A stretch of 64,000 nucleotides of DNA. It comes from Akkermansiaceae bacterium UBA5688 (lineage in GTDB: Bacteria > Verrucomicrobiota > Verrucomicrobiia > Verrucomicrobiales > Akkermansiaceae). The DNA is taken from positions 27,031-91,030 of the forward strand of contig DIHU01000219.1 of the NCBI GenBank assembly GCA_002420315.1. The letters run 5' to 3'. The translations under genes were made by a program, and so were the position numbers. The notes beneath the pieces were generated by a model. It was not told the origin of the DNA and made no database searches. It saw nothing but the letters and a program-made list of their open reading frames with translations. Positions 5,628-44,895 of this stretch are shown one piece after another; the first letter of the stretch is position 1, and each line of letters begins with the position of its first letter.

Positions 5628-5690
5628 TAACTCCGAAGGCGAAAAGGAAAAACGATCAACCCCAATCCCCTCAAGCCCGAAACGAACTCC

Positions 5691-7199: not shown

Positions 7200-8442
7200 T
7201 CGCTAGCGATTTATGCCTCAGGAAAAGGGAGATCGTCCGATCAATCGCTCCCTCATGCTTTTCTAGTACGACACGCGCTTTTTTCACTTGCCCTATCGGT
7301 ATTTTTTGAAGCGCAGAAACTAACTCTTCCCGAGAAGATACCATTAAAATTCCACCCGCTTCTTTTAGCTCGGTAACCAAAGGCTCGAAGTTTGCCATGT
7401 GCGGCCCACAGATGACTGGCACTTCTGCGAGAATTGCTTCGGAGGGATTCTGCCCTCCCTCTTGAAAGAAGCTCTTTCCGATGACTACGACATCTGCATG
7501 AGCTGTCCAGTCGCGTAACTCCCCCGTGCTATCGATCACAAACGATTCACTACCCAGAGGCTGCTGGAATTGACTTCGTAAAATCACATTGCCATCTAAA
7601 GCTTCAGCAACCTCTGCTCGCCGCTCGGCATGCCGGGGGACAATAACTGATTGATAACCTACCTCTTTAAAAACATCGTCGAGGTAGTCCTCTTCACCAG
7701 GAAAGGTTGAGATCGCCATGGCCACCGGCCTCCTTGGGAATTGATCTAACATCGCCGAGAATTCTAATCTCTTCTCAGGCAAAGCCGAGCCTGACGGATC
7801 GAACTTCACATTTCCGGTTAGCACCACCGCTTCTTTGCGGACTCCAATTGTTTGCCATCGGGCAAGATCCTCTTTTTCGGGAACTCCGACATGGTCTAGC
7901 AGTTCCAGAAAGGGGCTCACCAAACTTCGAAATTTTTTCAGGCGACGACCAGATCGCGGTGAAAGCCGAGCATTCATCAAACCAATCGGTATTCCTAAGC
8001 GGTGCGTTTCATGAATGAGATTTGGCCAAATTTCTGATTCCACCATCACCACGACCCGGGGTTCCAACCGTTTCATAACGCGGCGGACCAAGAATCCAAG
8101 GTCAAGTGGCGCATAAATTACGCGCACATCTTCGGGTGCCTTATCCCGGGCCACCGCCATTCCCGTCGCCGTGGTTGGGACCAGCACGAAATGATCGCCC
8201 GTTTTTTGTCGCCATTCCGTGATCACCTTTAGAGCGAGTAGCACCTCTCCAACGCTCACCGCATGGATATAAACTGCCCCAGTACGTTCAAACTCCATTT
8301 CTCTCTGATAGATTCCTATTCGTTCAAGCAACCCACTCCCCCAACCATCGCGACGTAACATTTTCAACATCCAAAAAGGCGCAGCAGCCAGAGCTAACAG
8401 CGGGTAGAGGATTCTCCAAACAATTATTACCACAGTCCTCAT
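7192..8442 (-). CDS. waaA: 3-deoxy-D-manno-octulosonic acid (Kdo) transferase
   Basis: KdtA-like blocks IHAVSVGEV and EIWPNLI, with a GT-B C-terminal half. The ORF-track start 8544 would overlap rsmD by about 100 nt. The internal ATG at 8442 (MRTVVIIVWRILYPLL, hydrophobic anchor) lies 1 nt after the rsmD stop and gives a typical 416-aa product. Confidence 0.85.
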   Translation of the reverse strand: MRTVVIIVWRILYPLLALAAAPFWMLKMLRRDGWGSGLLERIGIYQREMEFERTGAVYIHAVSVGEVLLALKVITEWRQKTGDHFVLVPTTATGMAVARDKAPEDVRVIYAPLDLGFLVRRVMKRLEPRVVVMVESEIWPNLIHETHRLGIPIGLMNARLSPRSGRRLKKFRSLVSPFLELLDHVGVPEKEDLARWQTIGVRKEAVVLTGNVKFDPSGSALPEKRLEFSAMLDQFPRRPVAMAISTFPGEEDYLDDVFKEVGYQSVIVPRHAERRAEVAEALDGNVILRSQFQQPLGSESFVIDSTGELRDWTAHADVVVIGKSFFQEGGQNPSEAILAEVPVICGPHMANFEPLVTELKEAGGILMVSSREELVSALQKIPIGQVKKARVVLEKHEGAIDRTISLFLRHKSLATN

Positions 8443-8443
8443 C

Positions 8444-8989
8444 TCAAGATTCCAACTGATAAATTGCAATTCGACTCCGGCCATAATCCCTGCTTTGAAC
8501 CAATACCAATTCTTTAGGATCAGGAAGTTCTCCCGCTGCTTCACGCTCCAAGATCAAAAAACCATCCTTCGCCAACCATTGCGCCCAGCCTTCGATCGCA
8601 ATTAAATCACGTGCCGGATCCCTCAATCCATCGGCGTAGGGAGGATCAGCAAAAATCAAATCATAACTCGTTTTTTCGCTATTTAGAAAAGCTCCCACAT
8701 CGCGCTGAATGACTCTGCCCTCTTTATAGCCTGTCTTGTTCAGATTTTCAGCGATGACACGGCATGCCCCACGATTCTGTTCCACAAAAGTACACGAAGC
8801 CCCACCACGACTCAAAGCCTCGATCCCTAGAGCGCCTGACCCGGCATAAAGATCAAGAACTCGCGAATTGGGAATCACAGCCGTAAGAATCCCAAACACC
8901 GACTCACGAACGCGATCCGTAGTCGGGCGCGAAACCTCACGCGGAACCTTTAGGGAATGCCCCTTTGCTGAACCGGCAATAATTCTCAT
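8444..8989 (-). CDS. rsmD: 16S rRNA (guanine966-N2)-methyltransferase
   Basis: MRIIAG...RPTTDRVRE start, SAM motif DLYAGSGALGIEALSRG, and catalytic FADPPY. Confidence 0.85.
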   Translation of the reverse strand: MRIIAGSAKGHSLKVPREVSRPTTDRVRESVFGILTAVIPNSRVLDLYAGSGALGIEALSRGGASCTFVEQNRGACRVIAENLNKTGYKEGRVIQRDVGAFLNSEKTSYDLIFADPPYADGLRDPARDLIAIEGWAQWLAKDGFLILEREAAGELPDPKELVLVQSRDYGRSRIAIYQLES

Positions 8990-10452
8990 GGTAAGTTAGG
9001 AAGATCGGTATTCTGGCCACCAAGGACTTCTTCGGCAGTATCAAAAAAAGGCACCCACGAACGATCCTCACCAAGGTCCATCATCAATGTCCCATCACGA
9101 GCTTCAATATGAATATCCCGAAATAAACGATCTGGAGTATTTAAGGGCTGAAAGTCCATCAGCAGGTTCCTAGGAGCTATCCTCACCCTTTTTGCGTGAG
9201 ATTGTGCCCTCTCGGGGCTTGAAACAATCCGCACCGTTGCCGCTGCCTCTCCCGCAGCCGTCGCAAACCCGTTTATCAGAATAGCGTCCTCTTCACCTAT
9301 AGCCCTTACATCTTTAGCCACTACTCCTGCCGCCGTGGCAACAAAGCTTGCTACCCCACGGTTAAACCTCATTCCGCCTTCATCCCGCGGATCATTGATC
9401 ATCACATTTTCAAAGTTAGTAATACTACTCCCTTTAAAGGTCGAAGGAGCTAGCAAGTAACCCTGCAGTCGATTCTTTGAAGTTAAATTGGACACTGAGA
9501 AGGGGGATTTCTGCTCCCGAAAAACCGAACTCAAATCAACCGGTTGATCTGGAAGGCTCACGTGTAAACCGACGGGAACCCCAGCTGCTATTTTCACGGC
9601 CGCCGACAACTCCAAATTCAAGCCAAAGACCTTAAGCGAATGCTCCATGACCGCGAGCGAACGATCTTCCCACATCACGGGGATCGTCAACCCCACTTCT
9701 GAAATCTCTTCGGACAAACTAATTTCTCCACAGGAAATCTCTCCCTTCCGAGTGCTTCCCCAGAGCGGAATCTCTCCTTCAATCTGGTCTAGAGTGAGTG
9801 AAAGGCCGGAAACACGCTCTGAAAAAATTCTCACTTTCGCATTAGAAACAATAATCTCTCCCTCAAAATTCTCAATTGGCATCGGGATCACGTTTGGACG
9901 ATCAACTTTGGATGGCACATCGCTCGGGACTAATGGGGATTGTTCGGTTTTCTCATCTGCTGACTGACCTTCAGGATTTGAATGATATCTCTCATCTTGA
10001 TCAGGCTGTCCTTGGAGCACTACCAACTTGGAAGAATTATCGGTGGGCATAGCAATAATTTCTCTCACGGTCTCAATCGCAACATTAACATCAAGCTGAT
10101 TAACCTCGAGCCGATCCCAACGCCTCTTACCTTTCAGCAGAGAAAGCCACGACACATCGATACGAAGTTTCCCGACCGTAAACAGAGGGTTCTTCTGCCC
10201 TAAGTCAGCTGGAACAAAGACTTGGAGCTTGCTCACCGTCACTCCCATCCAGGGCGACCAAGTCACACTTTTCAATTGGCAAGGTAAGCCTGTTTTTCGC
10301 TCTATCTTTTTACAAACAATTTCAGTTCCAATCGCCGTACAAAAAAACAGGTTTATACTCGCCCAGGCAAGTAGCGGAGCTATCCCCCACGTAGGCAATC
10401 GTAGTCCAAGAAATCTTTTGTTCAGCAGATTCACACGACTGGACCCTCCCAA
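8986..10452 (-). CDS. Membrane-anchored envelope protein, possibly AsmA-like
   Basis: TTG start. One N-terminal TM segment (WGIAPLLAWASINLFFCTAIG) followed by a beta-rich region with a pattern reminiscent of AsmA/TamB N-termini. 4-nt overlap with rsmD. The family call is tentative. Confidence 0.4.
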   Translation of the reverse strand: MGGSSRVNLLNKRFLGLRLPTWGIAPLLAWASINLFFCTAIGTEIVCKKIERKTGLPCQLKSVTWSPWMGVTVSKLQVFVPADLGQKNPLFTVGKLRIDVSWLSLLKGKRRWDRLEVNQLDVNVAIETVREIIAMPTDNSSKLVVLQGQPDQDERYHSNPEGQSADEKTEQSPLVPSDVPSKVDRPNVIPMPIENFEGEIIVSNAKVRIFSERVSGLSLTLDQIEGEIPLWGSTRKGEISCGEISLSEEISEVGLTIPVMWEDRSLAVMEHSLKVFGLNLELSAAVKIAAGVPVGLHVSLPDQPVDLSSVFREQKSPFSVSNLTSKNRLQGYLLAPSTFKGSSITNFENVMINDPRDEGGMRFNRGVASFVATAAGVVAKDVRAIGEEDAILINGFATAAGEAAATVRIVSSPERAQSHAKRVRIAPRNLLMDFQPLNTPDRLFRDIHIEARDGTLMMDLGEDRSWVPFFDTAEEVLGGQNTDLPNLP

Positions 10453-12690: not shown

Positions 12691-13833
12691 GTGTCGACGC
12701 AACTCCGGATCCCCTCTAGATCTCATTTAACAATTGAACGCGTGAAGCCCAAAATTCTAATTCTCTCAGCAAGCTTTGGCGATGGGCACAATAGCGCGGC
12801 CCGTCACCTCGCCCAAGCACTGGAGGAAAAAGCGGAAACCTTAGTCGCCGATCCATGCCACATCGGCAATCCGAGAATTAACGCATTCTTGTGTAAAGCA
12901 TACCGGGAAATCACTACTTACACCCCTAAAATTTGGGCTTGGATGTATCGATCCACCGACCGCCAAGACTTCTCCAAGCCCCTACCCTTTCTTACCAAGA
13001 CTGAGGACGCCGTTGCGAACTTGCTTAACAGATTCGAGCCAGATTTGGTTGTTAATACCTACCCGCTCTACCCTTACATGGTTGACCGACAATTTTCGAT
13101 AGGGCGCCGCGTTCCCATTATTACGATTGTGACCGACTCTATCGAAATCAATGCCGCCTGGACCCGCTCTCCCAGTGACTACTTTCTCATCACTGACGAT
13201 CACACCCGCGAAGAGCTGATCACCAGTAATCTCCCCAAAGAGAAAATGAATATCACCGGCTTTCCAGTGAGCCCTCGCTTTGAGAGCCTCGAAAAAGTTG
13301 CGCCGAATGACCCCCTAAATCCCTTCCGCATTCTCTTCTTTCCCACTGCCCGCTCTCCGCACGTCACTGACATCATAAAGGCCGCTCTCAGTCACGAAAA
13401 CCACATCACGGTCATTCTAGGACGAAACGTTCGCCGACTTTACCGTAAGCTCCAGCCTCTCAAAAAATCCTTTCCTGGACGAATCCATATCAAAGGATGG
13501 ACTCGCAAGGTCCCCGAGCTACTCTCCTCGCATCACCTCGTTATTGGCAAAGCCGGAGGTGCAACAGTGCACGAGGCCATTGCCGCACAGTGCCCCATGC
13601 TAGTCCACCAAATCGTGCCCGGACAGGAGGAAGGGAACATCGAACTTCTTAATCGTTTTCAAACCGGATCTCTTGCTACTTCAGCAAAGACTATTCGCGA
13701 ATCCATCTCCAACCTTCTCGCCGACGATGCCACACTCTGGCGCGAGCAGAAAAAACGACTCGCCCAACATGCTCGCCCCTCTGCCGCACGCGAGGCAGCC
13801 AAATTCATCTTATCCAAAGTCAAACCCTCATGA
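12691..13833 (+). CDS. GT28 glycosyltransferase of the MGDG-synthase / diacylglycerol glycosyltransferase (UgtP-like) family
   Basis: ILILSASFGDGHNSAA N-terminal motif and GKAGGATVHEAIAAQCPML C-terminal motif. GTG start; an alternative GTG lies at about 12742. Confidence 0.75.
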   Translation: MSTQLRIPSRSHLTIERVKPKILILSASFGDGHNSAARHLAQALEEKAETLVADPCHIGNPRINAFLCKAYREITTYTPKIWAWMYRSTDRQDFSKPLPFLTKTEDAVANLLNRFEPDLVVNTYPLYPYMVDRQFSIGRRVPIITIVTDSIEINAAWTRSPSDYFLITDDHTREELITSNLPKEKMNITGFPVSPRFESLEKVAPNDPLNPFRILFFPTARSPHVTDIIKAALSHENHITVILGRNVRRLYRKLQPLKKSFPGRIHIKGWTRKVPELLSSHHLVIGKAGGATVHEAIAAQCPMLVHQIVPGQEEGNIELLNRFQTGSLATSAKTIRESISNLLADDATLWREQKKRLAQHARPSAAREAAKFILSKVKPS

Positions 13834-14432
13834 CCTTCCTTTTCGACATCGGAAACGTTCTCCTAAAACTCCACTTCCAAAGATTCCACCTTGCTATTCT
13901 AGGTTCTGAAAACGCTCCCCTACCTGCCGATCTAGCCGATCTCAAAGACCCCTACGAAACTGGAAAACTCTCAGATCAAGAATTTGTAGAGCAATCACTC
14001 GACATTCTCAATCACCCTCTCACCTCAGACGAATTCGTGGCAGCTTGGGAAAACATCTTCTCACCCAATCTCCCGATGTGGGAAGTCGTCCACACTCTGA
14101 AGAAGCAAGGCCATCGCCTCATTCTTTTCTCAAACACCAACTCAATCCACGCCCGCTCATTTCTCAAAACCTATCAGGATTTTAATCTCTTCGATCACCA
14201 CCACTTTTCACAGGAAGTTGGAACCATCAAGCCTCTCCCCGAGTTCTATCAATCTGCCATCGAAAATTACAACCTCGTCCCTGGCGAAACCCTCTACCTC
14301 GATGACCTCCCCGAAAATATTACAACTGGAAAAAAGTTCGGTTTCTCCTCGTGGCAATACGACCTAAATGATCACCAAGCATGCGTCGCCTGGCTCTATA
14401 CCCAAGGGATAACCCTTGCAAAATCTTCCTAA
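13830..14432 (+). CDS. HAD-superfamily hydrolase
   Basis: Motif I FDIGNVL, motif II FSNTN, motif III/IV YLDDLPEN. ATGA overlap with the upstream GT28 gene. Confidence 0.75.
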   Translation: MTFLFDIGNVLLKLHFQRFHLAILGSENAPLPADLADLKDPYETGKLSDQEFVEQSLDILNHPLTSDEFVAAWENIFSPNLPMWEVVHTLKKQGHRLILFSNTNSIHARSFLKTYQDFNLFDHHHFSQEVGTIKPLPEFYQSAIENYNLVPGETLYLDDLPENITTGKKFGFSSWQYDLNDHQACVAWLYTQGITLAKSS

Positions 14433-14575
14433 AGCTTATCCCTCGCAAGTCTAGCCATTTAGACTAACCTCCGCCCTTAGCGCTAATCTTTCTCCTACCA
14501 ACCTTGAGAACTCACGTCGCCGCCAAGCTAGCTGCCTTATTCCTCATTAGGTTGTAAACCTTAAAGACAGCCGGC

Positions 14576-15553
14576 TTACTTCGTAAACGCGGCTTCGCGT
14601 TTCTCGTCGATACGAGCTGGCCCCAACTTCTTCCAATCGCTTGGATTTGGGAGTTCAAGCCGCTTCATGTTCTTGCCATAGCTATCAAGATTATCATTAA
14701 GATCATCTTCGGTCAGCGGCTTAGATTTTACGCCACCTTCCGGAACTTCAATCCCGGCAGACCAGATCAAAGCGTTAAGAACAACGGTGCGGAATCCATC
14801 CAACGCCCAAACGTGATGGTAGTGTCCACCGGTAAAACCAACCCCTCGACCACCATTCGGGCGCTCGTATCCCCACATGAGCGCATGCTCTTTGTCTAAA
14901 CCATCAACCCCATGCTGATTCCAAAGGTTGATGTATCGATACATATTCTCACGAGTCGGCGTTGCCGTCACCAAATCGAGCACCTTATCGCGTTCATTTA
15001 TGAAACGCATATTGTAGTAAAACTCATCAAGACAAGTCACCGTTTCCGGCACGCCATTCCCGATTTCATGATCTTGTTTGACCTTCATGTCTGCAACCCA
15101 GTGAGGATTGACTGACCACTCGGACTCCATTGCACCACCAATCCAGGGCTGGAAATACTTCTTCCCCATCTGTGGATTTGGGTGAACGGCATAGTGCATA
15201 AAGACCATTCCGACGCCCTTCTTTGCCAGAGAATCGAGATACTCCCACTCACCCGCGATACCACTCACACTATCGGCAAAGATGAAAATGGAATCCGCAT
15301 CATCAAGAACCGACTTATCCTTAGGCCAATCTTTCCCTACAACGACCGCCTCCACATTGAGTCCGCTCTCATCATTTAGTGCCTTTGCAAGTAGCATGCA
15401 ACCAGCCCTGAATTCATGCTCTCCTGATGCGTGGCTGCGGCTACCCGCAATCAATACAATCTTTTTTTTCGTCACTACCTCTTTCTTGGCGGACAAAAAC
15501 AACGGGCTGCCGAACGCCAGTAAGATTGGGATAATAAGGGTGAGGCCTCGCAT
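14576..15553 (-). CDS. ThuA-domain protein, secreted
   Basis: Signal peptide, then KIVLIAGSRSHASGEHEF...FMHYAVHP, a layout typical of PVC ThuA-like proteins. Confidence 0.6.
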   Translation of the reverse strand: MRGLTLIIPILLAFGSPLFLSAKKEVVTKKKIVLIAGSRSHASGEHEFRAGCMLLAKALNDESGLNVEAVVVGKDWPKDKSVLDDADSIFIFADSVSGIAGEWEYLDSLAKKGVGMVFMHYAVHPNPQMGKKYFQPWIGGAMESEWSVNPHWVADMKVKQDHEIGNGVPETVTCLDEFYYNMRFINERDKVLDLVTATPTRENMYRYINLWNQHGVDGLDKEHALMWGYERPNGGRGVGFTGGHYHHVWALDGFRTVVLNALIWSAGIEVPEGGVKSKPLTEDDLNDNLDSYGKNMKRLELPNPSDWKKLGPARIDEKREAAFTK

Positions 15554-15622
15554 AGATTCTTAATCTAATTACGAAGGGGTTTGCCTTTCCCTTCCAGAAA
15601 GAAATACATGGAAAAAATGTCG

Positions 15623-17056
15623 CTAATTTAAGGCCTTATACTCTCCAAACTCAAGCTCGTCACCATGAAGTTTTGCCTCTAATTTAAGCGCTTTAAAGAG
15701 CCTTCTAGCAACCTCTTTACCCTCACCTTGTTGGAGCAAATCCACTTTCTCCTGAGGATCTTTTTTAAGGTCATAAAGGCGGGCAATTCCGCCACCCGGG
15801 TAGAGAATCAGCTTATAGCCTTCTTTGGTAAGCGCACGCTGAGCATCCTTAAGATATGCTGAATAGATCTGATCCCGACCACTCGACTCGCCTCTAAGAA
15901 TGGGGATGTAGCTTTGATATTGAATATGCTCTGGAATCTCAACCCCTGCAACTTCAAGCGCAGTTGGAACCGAGTCTTGAATGTAAATCGGAGCCGAGAT
16001 CCTCTTTCCTGCCTCAACTTCCGGCCCCACAACGACGTAAGGAACCCTGATACTGTGATCATACATGTTCTGTTTCCCTAGAAGACCGTGATGACCACAA
16101 CCGAGCCCATGATCAGCAGTGAAAACAATATAGGTATTCTTAGTTTGATTATTTTTTTCCAGAGTATCCAGAACGCGCCCAATTTGGGTATCCATGTGGG
16201 TTATTAAGGCGAAGTACTCACGCCGGGCCACTTGAACCGAATACTTGGTCCTCGGCATTGGCGCGAGCTTCTCATCACGAAGACTATGCGGAGCCTTCAT
16301 CACTTTGCGGTGAGGATAGGCATCAAGATAATTATCAGGCACCTTCACATCAGAAACCGGATACATGTCGAGATACTGTTGCGGAGACTGTCGAGGATCG
16401 TGCGGAGCATTAAAAGCCAAGTAGAAGAAAAATGGCTTGTCGTCTTTTTTAGCCATATTGAGATATCTCACCGCCGTGTCAGCCTCCACTTCCGACCAAT
16501 GTTTCCCACCTTTCCAGAATCCGTTGTTGGACTTGTCAGTAGGATTCCAAGTATCTTTTTCCCCTTCAAGAGGACGATTGTATCCCGTTTTCACTTGATT
16601 AGGCATACCAGGACGAACATCTCCGACATGGTCAAAAAGAGCCTCTGCTTTCATCCGAACATGCCATTTTCCAGTCATGTAGGTAGTGTAACCAGCATCG
16701 CTCATTAATTGCGGCCAGAGACGGCGCTTACCCATCGTTTTCTCTTCTTCCTGTGCATACCAAAGATGCCGTCCCGTCATCATCATATTCCGGCTGGCCA
16801 CACAAATTGCGCCATTCCAGCCACCAGAATTATAGGCGTGAGTGAACTGAGTCCCCGAACTAAACAACTTATCCAAATTAGGGGTCTTGACTCCGGTCAT
16901 ACCAAGAGACCCAATCGCCTCATAGGTCATATCGTCAGCAAAAATGAATAGAACATTCGGCTTCTCGGACGCCGACACGATGGAGATTAGAGCAAGAAAC
17001 GGGGCAAAAACACGCATTGAGGGGAGACTACGCATAAAATCGGAACGTTTTGACAC
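15623..17056 (-). CDS. Sulfatase (formylglycine-dependent, S1 family)
   Basis: PNVLFIFADDM metal site. Formylglycine motif present as C-V-A-S-R (CVASRNMMMTGR). GKWH and FTADHG blocks. Signal peptide. GTG start, with in-frame ATGs 7 and 13 codons downstream. Confidence 0.85.
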   Translation of the reverse strand: MSKRSDFMRSLPSMRVFAPFLALISIVSASEKPNVLFIFADDMTYEAIGSLGMTGVKTPNLDKLFSSGTQFTHAYNSGGWNGAICVASRNMMMTGRHLWYAQEEEKTMGKRRLWPQLMSDAGYTTYMTGKWHVRMKAEALFDHVGDVRPGMPNQVKTGYNRPLEGEKDTWNPTDKSNNGFWKGGKHWSEVEADTAVRYLNMAKKDDKPFFFYLAFNAPHDPRQSPQQYLDMYPVSDVKVPDNYLDAYPHRKVMKAPHSLRDEKLAPMPRTKYSVQVARREYFALITHMDTQIGRVLDTLEKNNQTKNTYIVFTADHGLGCGHHGLLGKQNMYDHSIRVPYVVVGPEVEAGKRISAPIYIQDSVPTALEVAGVEIPEHIQYQSYIPILRGESSGRDQIYSAYLKDAQRALTKEGYKLILYPGGGIARLYDLKKDPQEKVDLLQQGEGKEVARRLFKALKLEAKLHGDELEFGEYKALN

Positions 17057-17111: not shown

Positions 17112-18272
17112 ATGAGTCGTTCCACCACCACCACCCTCAGTCATCGGCTTGAATACTGCGCCTATCGCATTTTTGAGTGGATACTCAAGATGTTGTCTGT
17201 GGAAACCGTCTTCAAACTTGGTGAATTCGTAGGGCGGATTGTGTATCGCTGCAGCTCAACTCGAAGGTATCAAGTGAACAGAAACCTTCGCCTCGCATTT
17301 GGCGACGAAAAATCGACATCCGAAACCTCACAACTTACTGCAGAAGTTTTCGAACGCACCGGGGCCAACTTCCTTACTTCGCTCAAAATCCCTTTTTTAA
17401 GTGATGACGAAATCTTAGCTAGACTACAATTTGAAGGGCTCGACGATTTCTACACTACCACGCGCAAGGGCGGTATTGTCATGGTCTCTCCGCACATGGG
17501 AAACTGGGAACTTCTTGCCCAAGCCGTCTTCCTAGTCGATGGGGATTTTAGGGCTGGAACACACTATCGCCCCCTCAACAATTCTCTGATCAATGCCGTC
17601 GTCGAACGCCGCAGAAAGCGACGAGGGCTTGAACTCTTCGCAAAAAGATCATCGACCCATCGCCTCTCGAGCTTTGTGAGGGAAGGAGGAGCTATGGGAA
17701 TTCTAGCAGACCAACGAGTTGGTGACCGTGGAGCCGCCTGCCTGTTTTTTGGTCGCCCTACTACCTGTTCACCACTCCCCCATCTAATTGCAAAACGAGG
17801 TAAAGGTCTCCTCACGAGTCTCTCATGCGAGACCGTCGGAATCGCACATTGGAAGATCTCCTTCCGTCTTATTCCAACGATCTCCGCTCAAGCGTGCGCA
17901 GATAGTATCGAGCAAGACTGGCGACGATCACCTGTTGATGTTTTTTGGTTCGAAAACCGCTGGCGCCTCCAAGGGAACGATCCGCTTGCCTTCCTCAACA
18001 AGTATAAAGACGACCTCGAAATACCCCGTCCACTTCGGGCCGTGAACCTCGCTCGAGAAGAAAAAAAACTTCCTTACCCTAATCGATTGATCACCCAAGA
18101 GCATCACGAAGTAGACTTTAAGCAGAGTGACCACGCACTTCGCGAAAAACTCCACGAAATCTCAGATCATGGAGAAACTCCAGTTGATGTTTTCCTTGCG
18201 CCACATTCTCAATTGGGTCGAGTCAAAAAACTCTCCGGGAAAACCATGACCCTTGCCGCCGAAAGGAACTAG
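17112..18272 (+). CDS. Lipid A biosynthesis (Kdo2-lipid IVA) late acyltransferase family protein
   Basis: LpxL/HtrB-family layout with the HX4E/D motif PHMGNWE and the ILADQR block. Confidence 0.7.
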   Translation: MSRSTTTTLSHRLEYCAYRIFEWILKMLSVETVFKLGEFVGRIVYRCSSTRRYQVNRNLRLAFGDEKSTSETSQLTAEVFERTGANFLTSLKIPFLSDDEILARLQFEGLDDFYTTTRKGGIVMVSPHMGNWELLAQAVFLVDGDFRAGTHYRPLNNSLINAVVERRRKRRGLELFAKRSSTHRLSSFVREGGAMGILADQRVGDRGAACLFFGRPTTCSPLPHLIAKRGKGLLTSLSCETVGIAHWKISFRLIPTISAQACADSIEQDWRRSPVDVFWFENRWRLQGNDPLAFLNKYKDDLEIPRPLRAVNLAREEKKLPYPNRLITQEHHEVDFKQSDHALREKLHEISDHGETPVDVFLAPHSQLGRVKKLSGKTMTLAAERN

Positions 18273-18360: not shown

Positions 18361-20511
18361 CTATAAAAAGAAATAAACTGGAGAATCCCCGACTTCCTTG
18401 ATTCCGGTCACATCGCCAGTCGCATTTAGAGCCTTCCTGAACTCGAACGACCAAGGTCCAGAGTAGGTTCTCCCATTACACCACATCATTATTATTTTCT
18501 CGTCGCCCCGCTCAAAGCGAAATGCGTATACGTCGTCTTCCATTTCTAATTTTTCCAAGAAAGTCGCCGAACCCAGCTGCTCTAAAAAAACACGAAGCAT
18601 CTTAAATCCAATCCGTTCGCGCCATCCGCCTTCGGCTCGCTCATCGACCAGTCCAAATCCGTGAGCCACCAAACGCCACCAGTAGACCCTGTCGACAAAA
18701 CCAGAGCACACTGAGATTACAAGATACCTTAACATATAGACTCCATAGTCGAATTCGCTCACACTAAGGGGGTGCTCAGGCGCATCAGGATCCACGTGAG
18801 CTGCCGTTACTGGAGACCAAATCCCCCCTCCTTCAAGGGGCCAATTCACCTCCGAGATAATCACTTGGTCATCACAAGCAGGCACAACCCTCGCAATTGC
18901 TCGCAGTAATCCGCATTTCTCAAGAGTGCTAAATCTTCCCTGAAAATTTTCCGGGGCTCCCCTTCGATCCACATAAAGATGATGGGACAAAGCTCCGTAG
19001 TGAAGTCCATCAGGGGCACTTTCAAAAGCTGAGAGGACATAATGATACTCGAAATCGATACAAGCGGGCCCCGTAAAGGTTATTTCAGGGAACTTCTCCT
19101 GTAACTTTAAAATCGGCGACAATAAGGCGACCTGATCATCTGGTCCATGAACACCCCATTTCATCCGGTTGACCGCGTGACAAATCTCTACAGCCGTTAC
19201 AAGCCCGCCAATTTCATCTAGCACAAAACTCAAAAATCTAGCCCACGAATCTGGCTCGCTGACAGCTCCACGATCCTGAACCATCGCGATCATCACCTTG
19301 CGTCCAGAAGCAACCAGTTCCTTCACCTGAGCAACCCCCTCCTTCCAACACGACATCCCTTCATGGTGACAAAATCGCAAAAGAACCGACACCCCTTCCA
19401 ACTTCTCCAATAACTCCAGTTGGCGATTAAAATCCAGATCTGTTGATTCAAGCGCCACTCCAAATCGCCCTTTCAAATCAACCCGGCTCTGGTAGGCCAA
19501 CGGGAGTTGCCTACGGTATTCACGCCAAATTCTTCCTGCGAATTTCAAAACTGACCAAGCAACTTTGTAGTGCCTTCCCAGAGAATAATATCGTTTCCTC
19601 TCATATCTCTCCATCGTGATCGATGCCTGCGCCGATTCCCGGTCCCAAATCCAAATATTCTGCACCTCGGGATAACTCCCAACTGCCTTCCGAGACCGTT
19701 TACGAAATGGATGACGCCATCTGCGGCTTCGCTCCCACCATTCAAACCCCCTCCGACGGGAACGCATCTCTTTGGTGAATTCTCGAGGTGGATTCCCCTT
19801 CCAATAAATCCTCACCAACACATTCAGAAACGCTGAAGGCAGTCGTATCCTCGAAAAATCCTGCGCTCGCTCTTTCGCGCTCAGGTCCTCCCTGATTCGC
19901 CCGCGATTAAGGTCAATAAACTGGACCTCTCCCCACTCACCTTTGCTTGAAACCTGAAATTCCATGTTTTGATTTCCCAGATCCCGATGCCAAAATCCAA
20001 CATCATGCATCCGCCGAATCGCAGAAGCGATATGACTTAATCTTGCTACCAAAAATCGACAATCCGCCTTCTCATGGTAGGCCTGAATCAGCGAATCCTT
20101 AAAGCTAATTAACGATTCGACATAATCCGAAAGATAAAAACTCTCCAGTAAATGCTTACCTTCCCAGCGATCGAAATAGGCTATAGGTTGAGGCGTTCCA
20201 ACTCCTCGGCTTTTCAAAAAATTACCAGCCTTAAACGAACGCTCAGCCTTGCTACCTTTCCTAAAGTCATAGAAGTCCTTGAGACATCCCTGCCGACCGA
20301 AGGCTTTCACAGCAACCTTCAAAGACTTCCCATTCTTTTCCAAATCGAGCACCACTACCCGGTGCCTCCCCTCGGATAAAACCCCTTTCTTTACAGATCT
20401 AGCCCGCTCCCCAAATCCGCTTAGAGACTCTTCGTCAAAGAATGATTTAAAAGCGGAAAGCACCTGTCCTTGGAACTTCCCTACTGAAAGCTTCTCCACG
20501 CCACTTTTCAT
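18361..20511 (-). CDS. Fusion protein: N-terminal Kdo/WaaP-family lipopolysaccharide kinase domain plus a C-terminal domain of about 430 aa resembling a TIM-barrel glycosidase
   Basis: Kinase part (aa 1 to about 290): KVAVKAF lysine, catalytic loop HRDLGNQNM, FIDLNR. C-terminal part: alternating beta/alpha pattern, with ISEVNWP resembling a GH-A nucleophile strand and VEICHAVNRMKWG where GH-A enzymes carry N-E. Confidence 0.6.
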   Translation of the reverse strand: MKSGVEKLSVGKFQGQVLSAFKSFFDEESLSGFGERARSVKKGVLSEGRHRVVVLDLEKNGKSLKVAVKAFGRQGCLKDFYDFRKGSKAERSFKAGNFLKSRGVGTPQPIAYFDRWEGKHLLESFYLSDYVESLISFKDSLIQAYHEKADCRFLVARLSHIASAIRRMHDVGFWHRDLGNQNMEFQVSSKGEWGEVQFIDLNRGRIREDLSAKERAQDFSRIRLPSAFLNVLVRIYWKGNPPREFTKEMRSRRRGFEWWERSRRWRHPFRKRSRKAVGSYPEVQNIWIWDRESAQASITMERYERKRYYSLGRHYKVAWSVLKFAGRIWREYRRQLPLAYQSRVDLKGRFGVALESTDLDFNRQLELLEKLEGVSVLLRFCHHEGMSCWKEGVAQVKELVASGRKVMIAMVQDRGAVSEPDSWARFLSFVLDEIGGLVTAVEICHAVNRMKWGVHGPDDQVALLSPILKLQEKFPEITFTGPACIDFEYHYVLSAFESAPDGLHYGALSHHLYVDRRGAPENFQGRFSTLEKCGLLRAIARVVPACDDQVIISEVNWPLEGGGIWSPVTAAHVDPDAPEHPLSVSEFDYGVYMLRYLVISVCSGFVDRVYWWRLVAHGFGLVDERAEGGWRERIGFKMLRVFLEQLGSATFLEKLEMEDDVYAFRFERGDEKIIMMWCNGRTYSGPWSFEFRKALNATGDVTGIKEVGDSPVYFFL

Positions 20512-20643: not shown

Positions 20644-21300
20644 GTGAGCCAGAATCTAATCAACCTTCCCTCTGACTGCCAAATCATTGGTCGAGGACTT
20701 TTCTGCTCTTGCTACCTCCACCCAGAAGACAACTCTATTTGCATCAAACTTCCGACCACTCATAAAAAGGCACGCAAACGTCAAAAAGCCGATGAAGCTT
20801 ACTATCGAAAGCTTCATCAAAATAAAGCAGATCTAACTTATATTAGTGATTATTTGGGCTCCTGCCAAACCACCCTCGGATCCGGCCAACTATACCAGTA
20901 TATCAAGGACAGTAATGGCCAGACCTCAAAAACACTCAATCACTATCTCTCGAACTACTCCAAAACAACGGAGGAGCTTTGCACTCATCTCGCCAAGCTA
21001 GGCCGCTATCTTCTAGAAAATCATATTCTTGTTAGTGACCTCCACGGCAACAACATCGTTTTTCAACATCTCAATAAAAACTCAAAGAAACTCATGATCG
21101 TAGACGGAATTGGCGACCGCGTTATTTTTACAGCGCTTAACTTTTTCAACTCAATCAAAGAAGGTAAAATCATTCGCCGATGGAATAGATTTATCAAACG
21201 ACTTCAAGATGACCACCCATCTGCTTCCCTACCGAAGGAAAAACTTTATCTAGGGGGAGAACCCTTCATAGACACTAAGACGACCAAAATAGCTCGCTGA
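20644..21300 (+). CDS. YrbL-family (PhoP regulatory network) kinase-fold protein
   Basis: GRGLFCSCYLHPEDNSICIKL closely parallels my recollection of E. coli YrbL (GTGRHRKCYAHPEDAQRCIKI). LHGNNIVF and IVDGIG blocks. GTG start. Confidence 0.7.
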   Translation: MSQNLINLPSDCQIIGRGLFCSCYLHPEDNSICIKLPTTHKKARKRQKADEAYYRKLHQNKADLTYISDYLGSCQTTLGSGQLYQYIKDSNGQTSKTLNHYLSNYSKTTEELCTHLAKLGRYLLENHILVSDLHGNNIVFQHLNKNSKKLMIVDGIGDRVIFTALNFFNSIKEGKIIRRWNRFIKRLQDDHPSASLPKEKLYLGGEPFIDTKTTKIAR

Positions 21301-21332: not shown

Positions 21333-23078
21333 CTAGGCCTTCGCCCGCTCCGAAATAATTGCCCCCTGATCGAGCTCAATCACGCGGCTTGCAATTTTGG
21401 TAGTAGAAAGACGATGGGCAATCAACAAGGTCGTGCGACCTTTCACTAAATCTGCTAAAGCCGATTGAATAATTGCTTCACTTTCATTATCGAGAGCACT
21501 GGTCGCTTCATCCAAAAGAAGGATTGGCGCATCCTTCAGAAACGCTCTCGCAATGGCAATTCGTTGTCGTTGTCCCCCCGATAGACTTCTTCCCATTTCG
21601 GAAACCGGCGTATCGTAACCTTGCTCCTGTTTGAGAATAAACTCATGTGCATTTGCCCTTTTTGCTGCACTTATGACTTCTTCCTCATTGGCACCCGGAA
21701 GCCCAAGAAGAATATTCTCCCTAATCGTACCTTGAAATAAAACTGCAGTTTGGGAGACCACCGCCACTCGATCACGAAGATCACTCTTGGACCATTTCCT
21801 CACATTCAGACCACTCACCGAAACACTTCCCGAATTCACATCATAAAAACGCGGGATCAAATTAAAGAGACTTGATTTTCCCCCTCCACTCGGACCAATC
21901 AGGGCCACACATTGACCGGGTTCAATCGTAAGATTAATTCCACGTAGGATGAGCTCATCACCATAGCCGAAGGATACATCCTTAAAAACAATACGACTTT
22001 TAAAAATCTCTGGTGTCTCAGGACACTTAGGATCATCCAAATGATCAACAGCGAAAGAAATCTCTTCTAATCGCTCAAGAGAAGCATCAGCCTGCCGCAA
22101 GTTCGCCTGAATAGCTCCCAACTTTTTTACCGGCTCATAGCAGAGATACAACGCCATCGCGATAGCCATAAAACTAGAAAGCTTCATCCCCTGTTGCGCT
22201 CCCAGATAGATTGCCACCGTCAAGCCAATTACTGATATAAATTCCACCGATGGTGAAATGAGGGTCTTGTATTTAACCACCTTCATCGAATAACGGATCA
22301 CCTCCTGAATTCGATTGCGAAATTTTTGCACGACCGCCCCCTGAAGATTATAGGCCCGAATCTCGAGTGGCGCCTGAATTGACTCAGAAATCTGCCCACT
22401 TAAATCGCCAGCATTAGCCTGCAATTTACGGGCTTTCCCACCCAAACGCTTCGCAAGCGCGCGTAGTGGGAGGACGCACAACGGAATAGAAAAAATTGAA
22501 AAGAGAACCAGAGAGGTGCCCTGGTTCGAAGCAGCTTCTGAGATCAAAAAAACTAAAGCTGCAATTAAGACCGCAGGTTGCTTGATAATATCAACGGCCA
22601 CTTTTCCCACCGTCGAACGAACAACTTCAGCATCTCCCACAAGCCGCGATAGCAAATCACCCGCCTGTCGCTTCTGAAAAAACGCTACAGGAAGGATCTG
22701 TAGCCTAGTAAAAACTTCGTCACGAATCTGTTCCAAAAAACGATATCCACAATAACTCATCAAATAGGTATTCAGAAACCCACCAAGCGCCCGAAAGAAA
22801 AACATCAGAGGAAGCCACGCACAGGCAACAGGAAGCAGCCACTCACCCGGCAACTGATCAAACCAACTCATCAAGCCTTCCACAAAGAAGCTGTTTTCCG
22901 GCTCTCCTTCCCCAAGACTAACTTGATCGTCTTTAAAAATTAAAGGAAAGACCACCTTTGCCGCAAGCGGCAACCCTGCTCCAGTCGCCGCCGCATAGAC
23001 TAGTCCGGACAAAACACTTCCAAGAAGCTGCCATTTGACCGGCTTAAAGTATTTGAAATAAGGCAGAAAGCGCTTCAT
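21333..23078 (-). CDS. msbA: ABC transporter, fused permease/ATPase, MsbA-like lipid A/LPS flippase
   Basis: Six-TM exporter domain, Walker A GPSGGGKSS, signature LSGGQRQRIAIARA, Walker B LLLDEATSALD. Sits between LPS genes. Confidence 0.75.
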   Translation of the reverse strand: MKRFLPYFKYFKPVKWQLLGSVLSGLVYAAATGAGLPLAAKVVFPLIFKDDQVSLGEGEPENSFFVEGLMSWFDQLPGEWLLPVACAWLPLMFFFRALGGFLNTYLMSYCGYRFLEQIRDEVFTRLQILPVAFFQKRQAGDLLSRLVGDAEVVRSTVGKVAVDIIKQPAVLIAALVFLISEAASNQGTSLVLFSIFSIPLCVLPLRALAKRLGGKARKLQANAGDLSGQISESIQAPLEIRAYNLQGAVVQKFRNRIQEVIRYSMKVVKYKTLISPSVEFISVIGLTVAIYLGAQQGMKLSSFMAIAMALYLCYEPVKKLGAIQANLRQADASLERLEEISFAVDHLDDPKCPETPEIFKSRIVFKDVSFGYGDELILRGINLTIEPGQCVALIGPSGGGKSSLFNLIPRFYDVNSGSVSVSGLNVRKWSKSDLRDRVAVVSQTAVLFQGTIRENILLGLPGANEEEVISAAKRANAHEFILKQEQGYDTPVSEMGRSLSGGQRQRIAIARAFLKDAPILLLDEATSALDNESEAIIQSALADLVKGRTTLLIAHRLSTTKIASRVIELDQGAIISERAKA

Positions 23079-23165: not shown

Positions 23166-24137
23166 GTGGATTTGATCGAAAAAGCCCGGAAGGTCATAGG
23201 GATTGAGACCTCGCAGCTCAACCGGCTAGCCGCGAGGCTCGATGAAAACTTTAGTAAAGCTCTTGGCGCCTTAGAAGAAACTCTCAAGGCTGGGCATAAA
23301 ATCGTCGTAATTGGAGTCGGCAAGTCCGAGCACATTGGGAACAAGTTCGTGGCGACCTTAAACAGCACTGGCGCCACTACCGTAGGCCTCAATTGTCAAA
23401 ATGCCCTGCACGGCGATCTTGGCATGCTTTCAGTCGGAGACCTTGTCATCGCTCTCAGTCATTCCGGAGAAACATCCGAAATGATCAGCTTGCTCCCTCA
23501 CGCAAAAAAGCGCGCTTCTCAAATCATTACCATAACCGGAGATACCAAATCCACCTTGGCCAAATACAGCGACATCATCCTCGATACCCATATTGAAAAA
23601 GAAGCCTGCCCTCTTCAGCTCGCACCGACTTCAAGTTCGACCAACATGCTTGTTCTCTGTGACGCACTGGCCATGGTCCTTCTTGAAAAACGAGGCTTCC
23701 ACTCAAAGGATTTTGCCGAGCTTCATCCCGGTGGCAGCCTTGGAAAATATCTGTTGAGTCGGGTTTCTGACATCATGCGTAGCGGTTCAACCTTTGCTAA
23801 AGTCCCCACCACTTCTCTCGTCCAAGAAGGCGTTCTTGCGATGCTAGAATGCCGGGCCGGAGCAGCTGTCATTGTTGACCCTAAAGGCAAGCTGGCTGGT
23901 ATTTTCACCCACGGAGATTTTGTTCGAGGCTATCAAACGAACCGGGAAATTGGAGATACTCCTATTTCTGACCATATGACTATTAATCCAATTACCGTTC
24001 ACGAAAATGACCTCGCGGCCGAAGTTGTCCGCGTTCTCCGTGAACATCGCATCGATGATCTCGTCGTTATCAATAATGCCGGTGAAGCAATCGGCCTAGT
24101 TGACGTTCAAGATCTATCCCGTCACGGACTAAGTTAA
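23166..24137 (+). CDS. kdsD: Arabinose-5-phosphate isomerase (KpsF/GutQ family, SIS + tandem CBS)
   Basis: VIGVGKSEHIGNKFVATLNSTG SIS motif, HGDLGM, and a C-terminal CBS pair. GTG start. Confidence 0.85.
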   Translation: MDLIEKARKVIGIETSQLNRLAARLDENFSKALGALEETLKAGHKIVVIGVGKSEHIGNKFVATLNSTGATTVGLNCQNALHGDLGMLSVGDLVIALSHSGETSEMISLLPHAKKRASQIITITGDTKSTLAKYSDIILDTHIEKEACPLQLAPTSSSTNMLVLCDALAMVLLEKRGFHSKDFAELHPGGSLGKYLLSRVSDIMRSGSTFAKVPTTSLVQEGVLAMLECRAGAAVIVDPKGKLAGIFTHGDFVRGYQTNREIGDTPISDHMTINPITVHENDLAAEVVRVLREHRIDDLVVINNAGEAIGLVDVQDLSRHGLS

Positions 24138-30825: not shown

Positions 30826-31506
30826 GTGAGTATAGAAGAACGCTTAAACTTTACCTTTAAAAGCCAAACGCTTTTGGATGAGGCCTTGTCCCACCCCAGT
30901 CTTTCGTCAGAAATTCGTCCGGCACCGCCCGACAACCAACGACTTGAATACCTTGGAGATGCTGTTGTCGAGCTCGTGATAAGCACCTATCTTTATCGCC
31001 GCTTCCCTGAATTCCAAGAAGGTGTCCTCACTAAACTTCGTGCTTCAGTAGTTTCAAAACCTGCACTCGCGGCAGCGGCACGCACCATTGATTTAGGCAG
31101 CGCACTTTTCATGAGTAATGGTGAATCCGGAAGCGGAGGCCGGCATCGGGATTCCAACCTCGCAGATGCCCTAGAAGCAATCCTTGGTGCAATCTATCTA
31201 GACAGTGGTCTTGAAGCCGCCAAAGAGGTGGCTTTGCAACTTCTCAGCAATCAACTCGAAATCCTCAATCCTCAGAAAGCTCAAGGAAACGCCAAAGGCC
31301 AACTCCAAGAAATACTCCAACAATTAAACCCGGAGGCACCTGTATACGAAGTCATCTCAGAAGAAGGCCCCCCCCACGACCGAACCTTCGTCTGCGAGGT
31401 TACATGGAAAGGCAAACATTTAGGTCAGGGCTCTGGCCCTAGTAAAAAGTCAGCCGAAGCACAAGCTGCACAAGCTGCCCTCAACGCTCCTACTTGGAAA
31501 AGCTAA
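30826..31506 (+). CDS. rnc: Ribonuclease III
   Basis: Signature [30 protein letters not shown], and a C-terminal dsRBD. GTG start. Confidence 0.9.
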
Positions 31507-32984
31507 GCAAGGATCTTACGAATGACCTTCCTTGACTCCACTCCGGTCAGTCGCTCGTCGAGACCTTGATGCCTCAGAGTGAATCTCTCGTGGTCGATCC
31601 CGAGGCAGTGAAGAGCGGTAGCATTAATTTCATTAATATGCACCTTATCCTTGACCGGATTATAAGAAAACTCATCTGTTTCTCCAACCTCGGTCCCTCC
31701 TTTAATCCCTCCTCCGGCCATCCACATACAGAAGTTTTTTGGGTGATGATCTCTTCCATACGTTTCACGGCTTAGCTTGCCTTGCGAATAAACAGTTCGC
31801 CCAAATTCCCCCCCCCAGATCACGAGAGTTTCATCCAACATTCCTCGTTGCTTGAGATCCTTAAGCAATCCGGCGCAAGCTTGATCTGTATCGAGACATT
31901 GGTTCCCTAACTCCTTTGGTAAATTCCCGTGAGAATCCCAACCACGGTGCATAATCTGGACCACGCGAACACCCTTTTCCACTAAACGGCGAGCAAGGAG
32001 AGCACTTGAGGCAAAAGAGCCAGGTGTTTTTACACGTTCTCCATAAAGCCCTAGAGTCGATTCTTTCTCATGGCTTAGGTCAGTCAACTCCGGCACGCTG
32101 GCCTGCATTCTGAATGCCATTTCATATTGCGAAATACGAGTCTGGATGTCTGGATCCCCGAACTTTTCAAAACCTCGTTGATTAAGTTTCCCCAGAGCAT
32201 CGAGCATCGAGCGTCGATCCTGACGGTCAACTCCTGGCGGGTTTTCAAGATGCAAAACCGGATCATTACCCGATCTCAAAACAACACCGCTATTCCTCCC
32301 AGGTAAAAACCCGGGCCCCCACATTCGGCTAAATAGCGCCTGAGCATTCGACCCTTTCGGAAAGTTTGGTGTCAGAGCTACGAAGGCTGGAAGGTCTTCA
32401 GTTTCTGCTCCCAGGCCGTATGAAATCCATGACCCCATACTCGGCTTCCCCGGAACTTCGCTTCCGGTCATTACAAAAGTACAAGCCGGATCGTGATTAA
32501 TTGCGTTGGAATGCACTGCTTTCACTACTGCAATATCATCGACAATTCCTGCAGTATGAGGTAACAACTCACTGACCCACCGCCCACATTCACCATGCTG
32601 GGTGAACTTGAATTTTGAAGGTGCGACCGGAAAACGACCCTGACCACTTGTCATAGTGGTAATCCGATTACCTAGAAAATCCTTCGGCAGATCTTTGTTA
32701 AATTGTTTGTGTAAATTCGGCTTATGATCCCAGGTATCAAGCTGCGAAGGTCCGCCATTCATATGCAAATAAATGACCGCCTTCGCCTTACCAGCAAAAT
32801 GGGGAAGCGCAGGCAAACCGGGATGCATCGGAGACCCAGCTTGCGCGACATCACGGGAGGCCATCATTGACGCAAGTGCGACACCTCCAAGTCGCATCCC
32901 GTTATCACCAAAAAACTGGCGGCGAGTTTGCAATAGGTTCTTTTCAAAAAATGGGTCCATATCAGTCAGATCAATTACGAACAA
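31503..32984 (-). CDS. DUF1501 (sulfatase-fold) protein with a Tat-type signal
   Basis: TRRQFF twin-arginine motif and conserved DUF1501 blocks (WDHH-like WDSHGN, GGEFGRT, GRDHHP). Confidence 0.8.
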
Positions 32985-35900: not shown

Positions 35901-36057
35901 CAATTCCGTGACACGTAAAGCACTTGTCCGAAAGAATTGGACGGATGTCCCGGTTGAAGTTTAAGACCTCGCTCCCGGTTGCAAAAAAGGACGACCCCAA
36001 CATCAAAAAAACGCAAAAACCGCTCCGATAAATCACACGAGACTCTAGCAAAAACAT
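32971..36057 (-). CDS. PSCyt (planctomycete cytochrome c) / DUF1549 / DUF1553 protein
   Basis: N-terminal haem-type motif CFTCHG, a second [11 protein letters not shown] block, and a DUF1553-type C-terminus. 14-nt overlap with the downstream DUF1501 gene. Confidence 0.8.
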
Positions 36058-44864: not shown

Positions 44865-44895
44865 CATCTTGGCTCATCCCCCCTATCTTCCGCTC

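Follow-up and report, generated by a model that had tools for sequence, protein, structure and literature searches.

Why should a kinase of the lipopolysaccharide (LPS) type carry, in the same polypeptide, a domain that resembles a glycoside hydrolase (GH) with an altered active site? The question is raised by an open reading frame (ORF) in a 64,000-nucleotide stretch of Akkermansiaceae bacterium UBA5688 (contig DIHU01000219.1, positions 27,031 to 91,030), which is called the window here. The original prediction, made from the letters alone, described a 716-residue ORF with an LPS-kinase N-terminus and a glycosidase-like remainder that may lack the acid/base residue. The ORF is present, on the minus strand, which that description had not stated. 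The minus-strand frame was uninterrupted, the plus-strand frame over the same interval was full of stops, and all the quoted motifs were found: KVAVKAF (residues 65-71), HRDLGNQNM (175-183), FIDLNR (198-203), HAVNRMKWG (445-453) and ISEVNWP (552-558). Our analysis indicates that the ORF probably encodes a soluble, bifunctional enzyme with two domains that works in the cytoplasm on the assembly of lipid A-core (LPS inner core).

Two genes could in principle have been joined artificially, in assembly or in gene calling, and split versions of the pair exist in other lineages. Beyond that, no support for such an origin was found, and we regard it as practically out of the question. The frame is intact and the G+C content is even, with 0.482 and 0.487 for the two gene halves and 0.485 for the window. 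Full-length homologues had 39-99% identity, and the full-length protein was matched by 297 protein clusters, nearly all with a length of about 720 residues; the closest genome relatives, at 88% identity, were marine Akkermansiaceae/Verrucomicrobiales metagenome-assembled genomes. Among the complete family members, 251 cluster representatives were fused and 52 were stand-alone forms of the C-terminal domain (C-domain). In a scan with one genome per species, 316 species had the fusion, among them cultured isolates of Cellvibrio and Marinimicrobium. The tblastn matches covered most or all of the 716 residues in the 80 listed loci that were looked at, which come from independent assemblies and isolates. 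The structural model also gave a confident inter-domain arrangement. An assembly-derived fusion was therefore rejected.

The fusion is an old one. It was found in Akkermansiaceae, Roseibacillus, Coraliomargarita, Opitutales and Puniceicoccaceae, in Victivallales/Lentisphaerota and Kiritimatiellia, and in Cellvibrio, Marinimicrobium, other Pseudomonadales and Polaromonas/Burkholderiales. The phylogenetic distribution thus includes Verrucomicrobiota, Lentisphaerota, Kiritimatiellia, Cellvibrionaceae and Burkholderiales. The family as a whole spans Verrucomicrobiota, Lentisphaerota, Kiritimatiellia, Acidobacteriota, Proteobacteria and organisms of the Campylobacterota type. When the C-domain alone was searched exhaustively, 421 representatives were returned at 50% clustering, and a profile search returned at least 922 clusters, including Thermoanaerobaculia fusions and Arcobacteraceae-type stand-alone forms, one of which is named 'glycosyl hydrolase' by NCBI. 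Larger forms with further N-terminal domains were rare. One relative of 1113 residues (P0129) is a triple fusion of a family 4 glycosyltransferase (GT4), the kinase and the barrel. Two others, P0204 and P0206, join TsaE (863 residues) or RibF (FAD synthetase/riboflavin kinase; 1059 residues) to the kinase and barrel, and these TsaE and RibF forms may be gene-calling run-ons.

The N-terminal domain carries the LPS-kinase features that had been claimed for it. Pfam PF06293 (Kdo/WaaP, where Kdo is 3-deoxy-D-manno-octulosonate) matched residues 89-222 with 45.5 bits against a cut-off of 21.3. A single-sequence search of the PDB gave marginal kinase matches only, so that a profile was required. With a profile of 58 homologues the best solved relative was Pseudomonas WaaP (6DFL, E = 1.2e-11), and Foldseek also ranked 6dfl_A first for the kinase half of the model (E = 5e-12). 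The catalytic residues expected of a protein-kinase-like fold, K69, H175, D177, N182 and D200, were intact and invariant in the 58 homologues. In WaaP the corresponding Lys, the HRD Asp and the DLH Asp are essential in vivo (PMC6147952). The kinase looks catalytically competent because its residues are invariant and these three WaaP counterparts are essential.

The kinase did not reach the orthologue level of either known enzyme. It scored 36.8 bits with the NCBIfam WaaP (RfaP) equivalog NF011703 (cut-off 170) and 36.0 bits with the KdkA (Kdo kinase) equivalog NF002475 (cut-off 142). The KdkA model spanned more of the domain, residues 46-222. Judged by the NCBI models, the kinase is a divergent Kdo/WaaP-family member and not an orthologue of WaaP or KdkA. 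WaaP (the LPS core heptose(I) kinase) shares PF06293 with the fusion kinase and is its best profile and structural match, with HRD and DLx aligned. However, WaaP is a single-domain protein of about 260-270 residues with an acyl carrier protein (acyl-ACP)-binding subdomain (PMC6147952), whereas the fusion adds a C-terminal barrel of 430 residues. The catalytic loops also differ, with the canonical HRDLGNQN and Asn182 in the fusion kinase and HRDCYICH in WaaP. KdkA belongs to the same Pfam family but is likewise single-domain.

The beta/alpha pattern noted in the remaining part of the protein was seen to reflect a clan GH-A fold. Residues 290-716 matched no Pfam or NCBIfam family, nor did those of 28 relatives scanned at E <= 10, and no Pfam GH match was obtained for these 29 members even at that threshold. 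AlphaFold2 modelled the full-length protein (58-sequence alignment) with a predicted local distance difference test score (pLDDT) of 92.1 and a predicted template modelling score (pTM) of 0.89. The C-domain alone gave a pLDDT of 89.7 and a pTM of 0.90. The model contains eight strand-helix units, with DSSP barrel strands at residues 350-354, 375-381, 406-411, 440-442, 478-480, 507-512, 550-555 and 608-611.

The first Foldseek matches in the PDB were GH30 subfamily 8 structures, XynC 3KL3, Xyn30D 4QAW, CtXyn30A 4UQA and XynA 1NOF (E = 5e-12 to 6e-11, template modelling (TM) scores 0.51-0.57). The alignments to these GH30 structures of 383-537 residues ran over 429-445 columns, compared with the 426 residues of the C-domain model. 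GH10, GH2, GH1, GH51 and GH53 enzymes came next. Matches with E below about 1e-5 were nearly all clan GH-A, with a Foldseek probability of 1.00, and GH13-type alpha-amylase-family barrels stood further down. The barrel is followed by a beta-sandwich in the arrangement found in the GH30, GH39 and GH51 matches. In a search of the PDB with the family profile GH39 XynB1 was a weak match (E = 0.066), while hhalign gave 93.5% probability for the family profile against the XynB1 segment, which supports distant homology to GH39 and not membership. The C-domain fails membership of GH30 and GH39 because no family model matches it and the defining catalytic residue is absent. On the modelled structure, the C-domain (residues 283-716) appears to found a family of its own, so far unclassified, whose architecture is that of GH30/GH39 in clan GH-A.

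At its start, the C-domain family has a W-x-W-D/N...QP motif common to fused and stand-alone homologues, followed by a 26-residue helix (residues 313-338). This helix is hydrophobic and basic in stand-alone homologues and transmembrane-like in P0280, and it may serve as an in-plane membrane anchor or have a role at the membrane surface.

Both alignments to XynB1, by HMMER and by hhalign, placed E442-I-C-H445-A446-V-N448 on E156-V-W-N159-E160-P-N162, Y513 on Y230, and E554 on the nucleophile E278. The chain aligned over the strand-4 stretch was 2BFG, which has Ala at position 160 and which we take to be the E160A acid/base mutant. The proposed assignment of ISEVNWP to the nucleophile strand stands because the two alignments give one register; E554 ends strand 550-555 and is the putative nucleophile. 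The acid/base site was predicted correctly in substance and not in register. The position that holds Asn-Glu in GH-A enzymes had been read as Asn-Arg, but it corresponds to H445-A446, and N448-R449 lie three residues on. The loss of the acid/base itself was evident in all 303 members with a near-complete C-domain (the 251 fused and 52 stand-alone forms): none has Asp or Glu at 445 or 446, and the N448-R449 register is also without a carboxylate. The residues seen at 445 are H, Q, N, S, T and V, and Arg in a single member; those at 446 are A, V and T, and Asn and Cys in a single member each.

In spite of this loss, the pocket is highly conserved. All 303 members have R379 (strand 2), R449, W452, D486 and D515; N448, Y513 and E554 occur in 302, K451 in 301, and W611 in 291 (240 of the 251 fused forms and 51 of the 52 stand-alone forms). 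E488, R516, E521, K532, N556 and W557 are near-invariant. Every barrel strand carries invariant residues at its C-terminal end, the canonical catalytic face, and the polar residues remain invariant between Verrucomicrobia and stand-alone forms of the Campylobacterota type, with an overall identity of about 30%. By alignment, the set for the nucleophile and the -1 sugar is thus kept, namely the strand-2 Arg, strand-6 Tyr, strand-7 Glu and strand-8 Trp that GH30 and GH39 enzymes also have. The proton donor is replaced by a small residue, after which comes a cationic N-R-x-K-W loop. The C-domain has the barrel and beta-sandwich of GH30 subfamily 8 (XynC, Xyn30D, XynA) and of GH39 XynB1 (1W91/2BFG), but it differs in its identity of only 10-12%, a TM score of about 0.55, Ala for the acid/base Glu and this unique loop. 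In addition, GH30 and GH39 enzymes are secreted polysaccharide degraders, whereas the fusion protein is predicted to be cytoplasmic and LPS-linked.

The absence of the canonical acid/base might be attributed to its relocation, in which case the barrel would be a conventional retaining hydrolase using E488, D486, D515 or E521 to trim a sugar such as an outer Kdo from the nascent core, either ahead of phosphorylation or following it. D486 and D515 do not vary and E488 and E521 hardly do. All four stand at strand ends next to strand 4, and D486 and E488 are candidates for a relocated acid/base. Kdo trimming combined with phosphorylation would yield the Kdo-phosphate needed by some LpxL homologues (PMC3178793). 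The lpxL-type gene is also the commonest neighbour of the fusion gene. We nevertheless consider such a hydrolase quite unlikely. We know of no clan GH-A family with the acid/base off strand 4, the Kdo hydrolases known so far resemble sialidases, not TIM barrels, and the invariant Arg/Lys loop at the acid/base site would be left unexplained.

Alternatively, the barrel could be a catalytically dead, lectin-like pseudo-glycosidase that recognises an LPS-core sugar, Kdo or phosphate and presents the substrate to the kinase. The family-wide absence of the acid/base is consistent with this, as is the conserved linkage of barrel and kinase described below, and the two-domain pTM of 0.89 suggests a fixed arrangement suited to substrate hand-over. 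Alpha-Klotho (5W21), which has lost one catalytic residue but kept the pocket, was among the Foldseek matches, and chitinase-like lectins are another case of a pseudo-glycosidase. Alpha-Klotho, like other pseudo-glycosidases, uses a GH-A fold minus one catalytic carboxylate for binding; it is, however, eukaryotic, GH1-derived and extracellular, whereas in the C-domain the loss is family-wide with many invariant polar residues left. The invariant set comprises R379, Y513, E554 and W611 and no fewer than ten other polar residues, which is more than binding usually requires. The kept nucleophile set together with about ten further invariant polar residues argues, as far as conservation can indicate, at least as well for altered catalysis. 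Stand-alone barrel genes without an adjacent kinase (L087, L088 and L091) also speak against a mere presenting module, and imply that the domain has a function of its own. A purely binding barrel is a possibility to be taken seriously, although we judge it unlikely. Of the earlier bifunctional or substrate-recruiting proposal, the kinase, the GH-A fold, the altered site and the LPS context were thus upheld; a solely recruiting, dead module was not established.

The linkage between kinase and barrel was conserved beyond the fusion. Seven stand-alone C-domain loci were examined. In L085 a 428-residue barrel gene begins at the stop of a Kdo-type kinase gene, itself 3' of a GT9 gene; the kinase gene (6496-8001 of that locus) has an N-terminal PEMT/ICMT-like membrane methyltransferase domain. 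In L086 a truncated gene upstream of the barrel matches the tail of the L085 kinase, so the barrel there probably also follows a Kdo-type kinase gene directly. In L090 the barrel gene begins 3 nucleotides after a YrbL-family gene. The core cluster around it includes waaL, three YrbL paralogues (1418-1999, 5138-5716 and 8384-8998), a Kdo-type kinase, three GT9 genes, two of which flank the YrbL-barrel pair, several GT4/GT2 genes and an EptA-like sulfatase-family gene. We take the YrbL family to be kinase-like. Because YrbL (PF10707, 'PhoP regulatory network protein') recurs in core clusters, and once lies directly 5' of a stand-alone barrel, gene order suggests that YrbL proteins may be LPS-core sugar kinases able to partner the barrel.

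The barrel gene of L087 and L088 has a class II aminoacyl-tRNA-synthetase-like gene on one side and a GT9 gene on the other, beside gmhA, hldE, hldD and HAD-phosphatase genes of heptose synthesis. The synthetase-like gene directly 5' of the barrel (L087 3-776, L088 4874-5716) encodes a HisRS/HisZ-type protein (PF13393) of 257-280 residues, and the place of the kinase may be taken in this lineage by another partner that uses ATP. The two further stand-alone loci, one of them L091, were uninformative or without LPS genes.

The fused genes showed a similar context. At least one lipid A/core marker lay within 8 kb in about 46 of the 80 fused loci. An lpxL-type gene was near the fusion in 23 of them, and a divergent YrbL gene was adjacent in 10, as it is in the window. 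Lentisphaerota and Kiritimatiellia loci have lpxK-GT9-GT2 upstream of the fusion, and some gammaproteobacterial loci have hldE-hldD-waaA or GT9 genes. In Opitutales-type loci a GT4 gene stands directly upstream, and the GT4-kinase pairing recalls that of waaG and waaP. In L082 the fusion belongs to a same-strand series of lpxK, GT9, GT2, a PTP/DSPc-type phosphatase, GT4, the fusion and an LpxL-type acyltransferase, followed by three ArnT-like (PMT_2) genes and then murJ. The phosphatase gene occupies 7171-7824 of that locus, and a kinase and a phosphatase in one LPS series hint at a transient phosphorylation step. The LpxL homologues of Vibrio, Haemophilus and Bordetella require KdkA-type phosphorylation, and the recurrent adjacency of fusion and lpxL fits a need of this kind for KdkA-phosphorylated Kdo; in this the linkage recalls the KdkA-LpxL dependency (PMC3178793). 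The lipooligosaccharide structure reported for Akkermansia muciniphila, which contains three Kdo and a single type of heptose and lacks core phosphate (PMC11436972), gives no constraint here.

Several observations weigh against a bifunctional enzyme of inner-core assembly. The sequence likeness to real glycosidases is marginal, both in the PDB profile search (E = 0.066) and in identity (about 10-12%). Loss of the acid/base with the other pocket residues kept is a hallmark of lectin-like pseudo-glycosidases, and alpha-Klotho appears among the structural matches. The RfaP and KdkA models score equally and far under their cut-offs, so the substrate may be Kdo, heptose or another sugar. Finally, the Marinimicrobium fusion (L081) adjoins a GH26 gene and an AsmA-like gene, and another (L083) lies among central-metabolism genes, with no LPS genes near either.

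These last two loci, one beside GH26 and the other among sugar-phosphate genes, could indicate a role outside LPS, as a cytoplasmic sugar-salvage or storage-glycan enzyme acting on a free oligosaccharide. The pattern would be that of TreS-Mak in the GlgE pathway, an established design that combines a GH fold with a sugar kinase of the eukaryotic-like-kinase fold (PMC4306142). However, the kinase belongs to the LPS-specific PF06293 family, most of the informative loci are lipid A/core clusters, one relative is the triple fusion with a GT4 glycosyltransferase, and some stand-alone forms have an N-terminal membrane anchor. A function away from LPS therefore seems highly improbable to us.

For the inner-core enzyme that we favour, the analysis shows the folds and the residue pattern, how the family is distributed, the linkage of kinase and barrel, and the LPS context; the substrates and the catalytic nature of the barrel are what we infer. 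Since the kinase uses ATP, the protein must work in the cytoplasm, presumably at the inner leaflet, on which the core is assembled. We rejected a glycosidase of the periplasm or a secreted one: the fusion protein has no signal peptide, the barrel follows an ATP-dependent kinase, and 247 of the 251 fused forms are without a transmembrane-like segment. A hydrophobic N-terminal anchor was seen in 4 of the 52 stand-alone forms. We propose that the kinase would add phosphate to a hydroxyl group of Kdo or heptose in nascent lipid A-core, at the inner membrane's inner face, and that the -1 pocket of the barrel would bind a sugar of the same molecule. The barrel would then act on a glycosidic bond with an anionic leaving group or acceptor, either a phosphate, possibly installed by the kinase, or the Kdo carboxylate. 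Its chemistry could be transglycosylase- or phosphorylase-like, or trimming, akin to that of retaining glycosidases without an acid/base. Such enzymes still turn over when given a good anionic leaving group and a nucleophile that needs no deprotonation. An anionic group would need charge pairing by Arg and Lys, not protonation, and the invariant N-R-x-K-W loop at the acid/base site fits this. The two activities are proposed to be functionally coupled, which would explain why the domains are fused in most lineages and side by side in others.

A more specific version, which we offer as a doubtful conjecture, is that the C-domain is an acid/base-free retaining GH-A catalyst which transfers sugars on the LPS inner core in a phosphate-dependent way. 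A phosphate-activated donor would give a glycosyl-enzyme at E554, and the phosphate just added to Kdo or heptose by the fused kinase would receive the sugar, or lose it. Charge pairing of the N-R-x-K-W loop with this phosphate would stand in for a general acid/base. If true, LPS biosynthesis would include a non-Leloir glycosyltransferase of GH fold, or a glycoside phosphorylase, which would found a new CAZy family, and by extension YrbL-family proteins would be alternative kinase partners.

Parts of such a mechanism have counterparts elsewhere. Myrosinase (GH1) and engineered acid/base mutants (thioglycoligases) carry out clan GH-A catalysis without an acid/base, and Arg residues of myrosinase bind the anionic aglycone; these enzymes have only the clan fold in common with the C-domain. 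The fusion of a GH fold and a kinase fold has one precedent, TreS-Mak, in an unrelated pathway. TreS-Mak (Pep2), which works with GlgE, joins a GH fold to a eukaryotic-like-kinase-fold sugar kinase, and its sugar phosphate serves as a glycosyl donor (PMC4306142). It differs in having a GH13 and not a GH-A domain, another kinase family, the reversed domain order, and alpha-glucan instead of LPS as its field. In the literature searched on LPS/Kdo/WaaP kinases with a glycoside hydrolase or TIM barrel, neither the architecture nor the C-domain family was described, in line with the original prediction, which knew of no description of the architecture.

LPS inner-core assembly is regarded as well mapped, with Leloir glycosyltransferases and single-domain kinases. 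The family adds a glycosidase-fold domain whose active site cannot work as that of a normal glycosidase. If catalytic, the C-domain would represent a new CAZy-type family, a new core-biosynthesis reaction and a natural example of acid/base-free retaining catalysis, and would provide a lead on the function of the YrbL proteins, which are PhoP-regulated in enterobacteria. If it only binds, a pseudo-glycosidase would have been reused as a substrate-recognition module. The databases label the fusion 'lipopolysaccharide kinase InaA family protein' or 'hypothetical' only, and the former label misses 60% of the protein either way.

Table 1. Features of the fusion gene and its neighbours, in window coordinates; residue numbers refer to the 716-residue protein.
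Feature	Coordinates	Strand	Basis or remark
Whole ORF, Kdo/WaaP-family kinase + GH-A-like domain	18361..20511	minus	716 residues + stop, ATG to stop
Kinase domain, residues 1-265, protein-kinase-like fold	19717..20511	minus	PF06293; profile and Foldseek matches to WaaP 6DFL
KVAVKAF, ATP-binding Lys69	20299..20319	minus	K69 invariant in 58 homologues
HRDLGNQNM, catalytic loop (H175, D177, N182)	19963..19989	minus	invariant in 58 homologues; aligned on WaaP HRD
FIDLNR, DFG-equivalent metal-binding Asp200	19903..19920	minus	D200-L-N invariant; aligned on WaaP D188-L-H
Start of C-domain family, residues 283-340, IWIWD..SAQA motif + 26-residue helix	19492..19665	minus	helix from DSSP
26-residue helix, residues 313-338	19492-19575	minus	possible membrane-surface helix
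(beta/alpha)8 barrel, residues 348-646	18574..19470	minus	DSSP, Foldseek, hhalign
HAVNRMKWG after strand 4; H445-A446 at the Asn-Glu position; cationic loop N448-R449-x-K451-W452	19153..19179	minus	alignment to XynB1 N159-E160
GPACIDFEY after strand 5, D486 and E488	19045..19071	minus	D486 invariant; E488 is Asp in 9/303, Ala in 1/303
LYVDRRGAPE after strand 6, Y513 (= GH39 Y230), D515, R516, E521	18949..18978	minus	
ISEVNWP, end of strand 7, E554, putative nucleophile	18838..18858	minus	alignment to XynB1 E278; 302/303
VYWWRL, strand 8, W611	18670..18687	minus	invariant in 29-sequence alignment
C-terminal beta-sandwich side domain, residues 647-716	18364..18573	minus	strands 650-654, 661-668, 671-678, 693-695, 712-715
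LpxL-type lipid A secondary acyltransferase, convergent neighbour	17112..18272	plus	PF03279, E = 1e-35
YrbL-family gene, divergent neighbour	20644..21300	plus	PF10707, E = 3e-35
msbA-like lipid A exporter	21333..23078	minus	TIGR02203/02204, E = 1e-116 to 4e-118, under equivalog cut-offs
kdsD, arabinose-5-phosphate isomerase, Kdo synthesis	23166..24137	plus	TIGR00393, 265 bits against cut-off 204
waaA	7192-8544		
GT9 gene	44776-45891		

The four flanking genes named in the original prediction, lpxL-like, YrbL-like, msbA-like and kdsD, were all recovered by family models (Table 1), and the window also contains waaA and a GT9 gene. A scan for promoters and terminators around the fusion gene gave counts no higher than in shuffled sequence. 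Among the LPS-related genes, the block at 12691-17056 encodes an MGDG-synthase/diglucosyl-diacylglycerol-synthase-like glycosyltransferase, an HAD phosphatase, a ThuA-like protein and a sulfatase, and it is syntenic in the closest relatives (L002-L005).

Some genes elsewhere in the window may be mentioned. A 1448-residue protein (240-4586, plus strand) has lamin-tail domains, a CotH kinase domain, a PKD domain and bacterial TSP3 repeats, and is probably a large protein, secreted or at the surface, that includes a kinase-like module. At 31503-36057 (minus strand) a PSCyt1/PSCyt2/PSD1 (DUF1549/DUF1553) protein is paired with a DUF1501 protein, a pair of unknown function that we presume to be typical of Planctomycetes and Verrucomicrobia. 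A 566-residue protein with four FKBP-type peptidyl-prolyl isomerase domains is encoded at 57599-59299 (minus strand), and its gene adjoins that of a type III polyketide synthase/FAE1-like condensing enzyme (59333-60427, minus strand).

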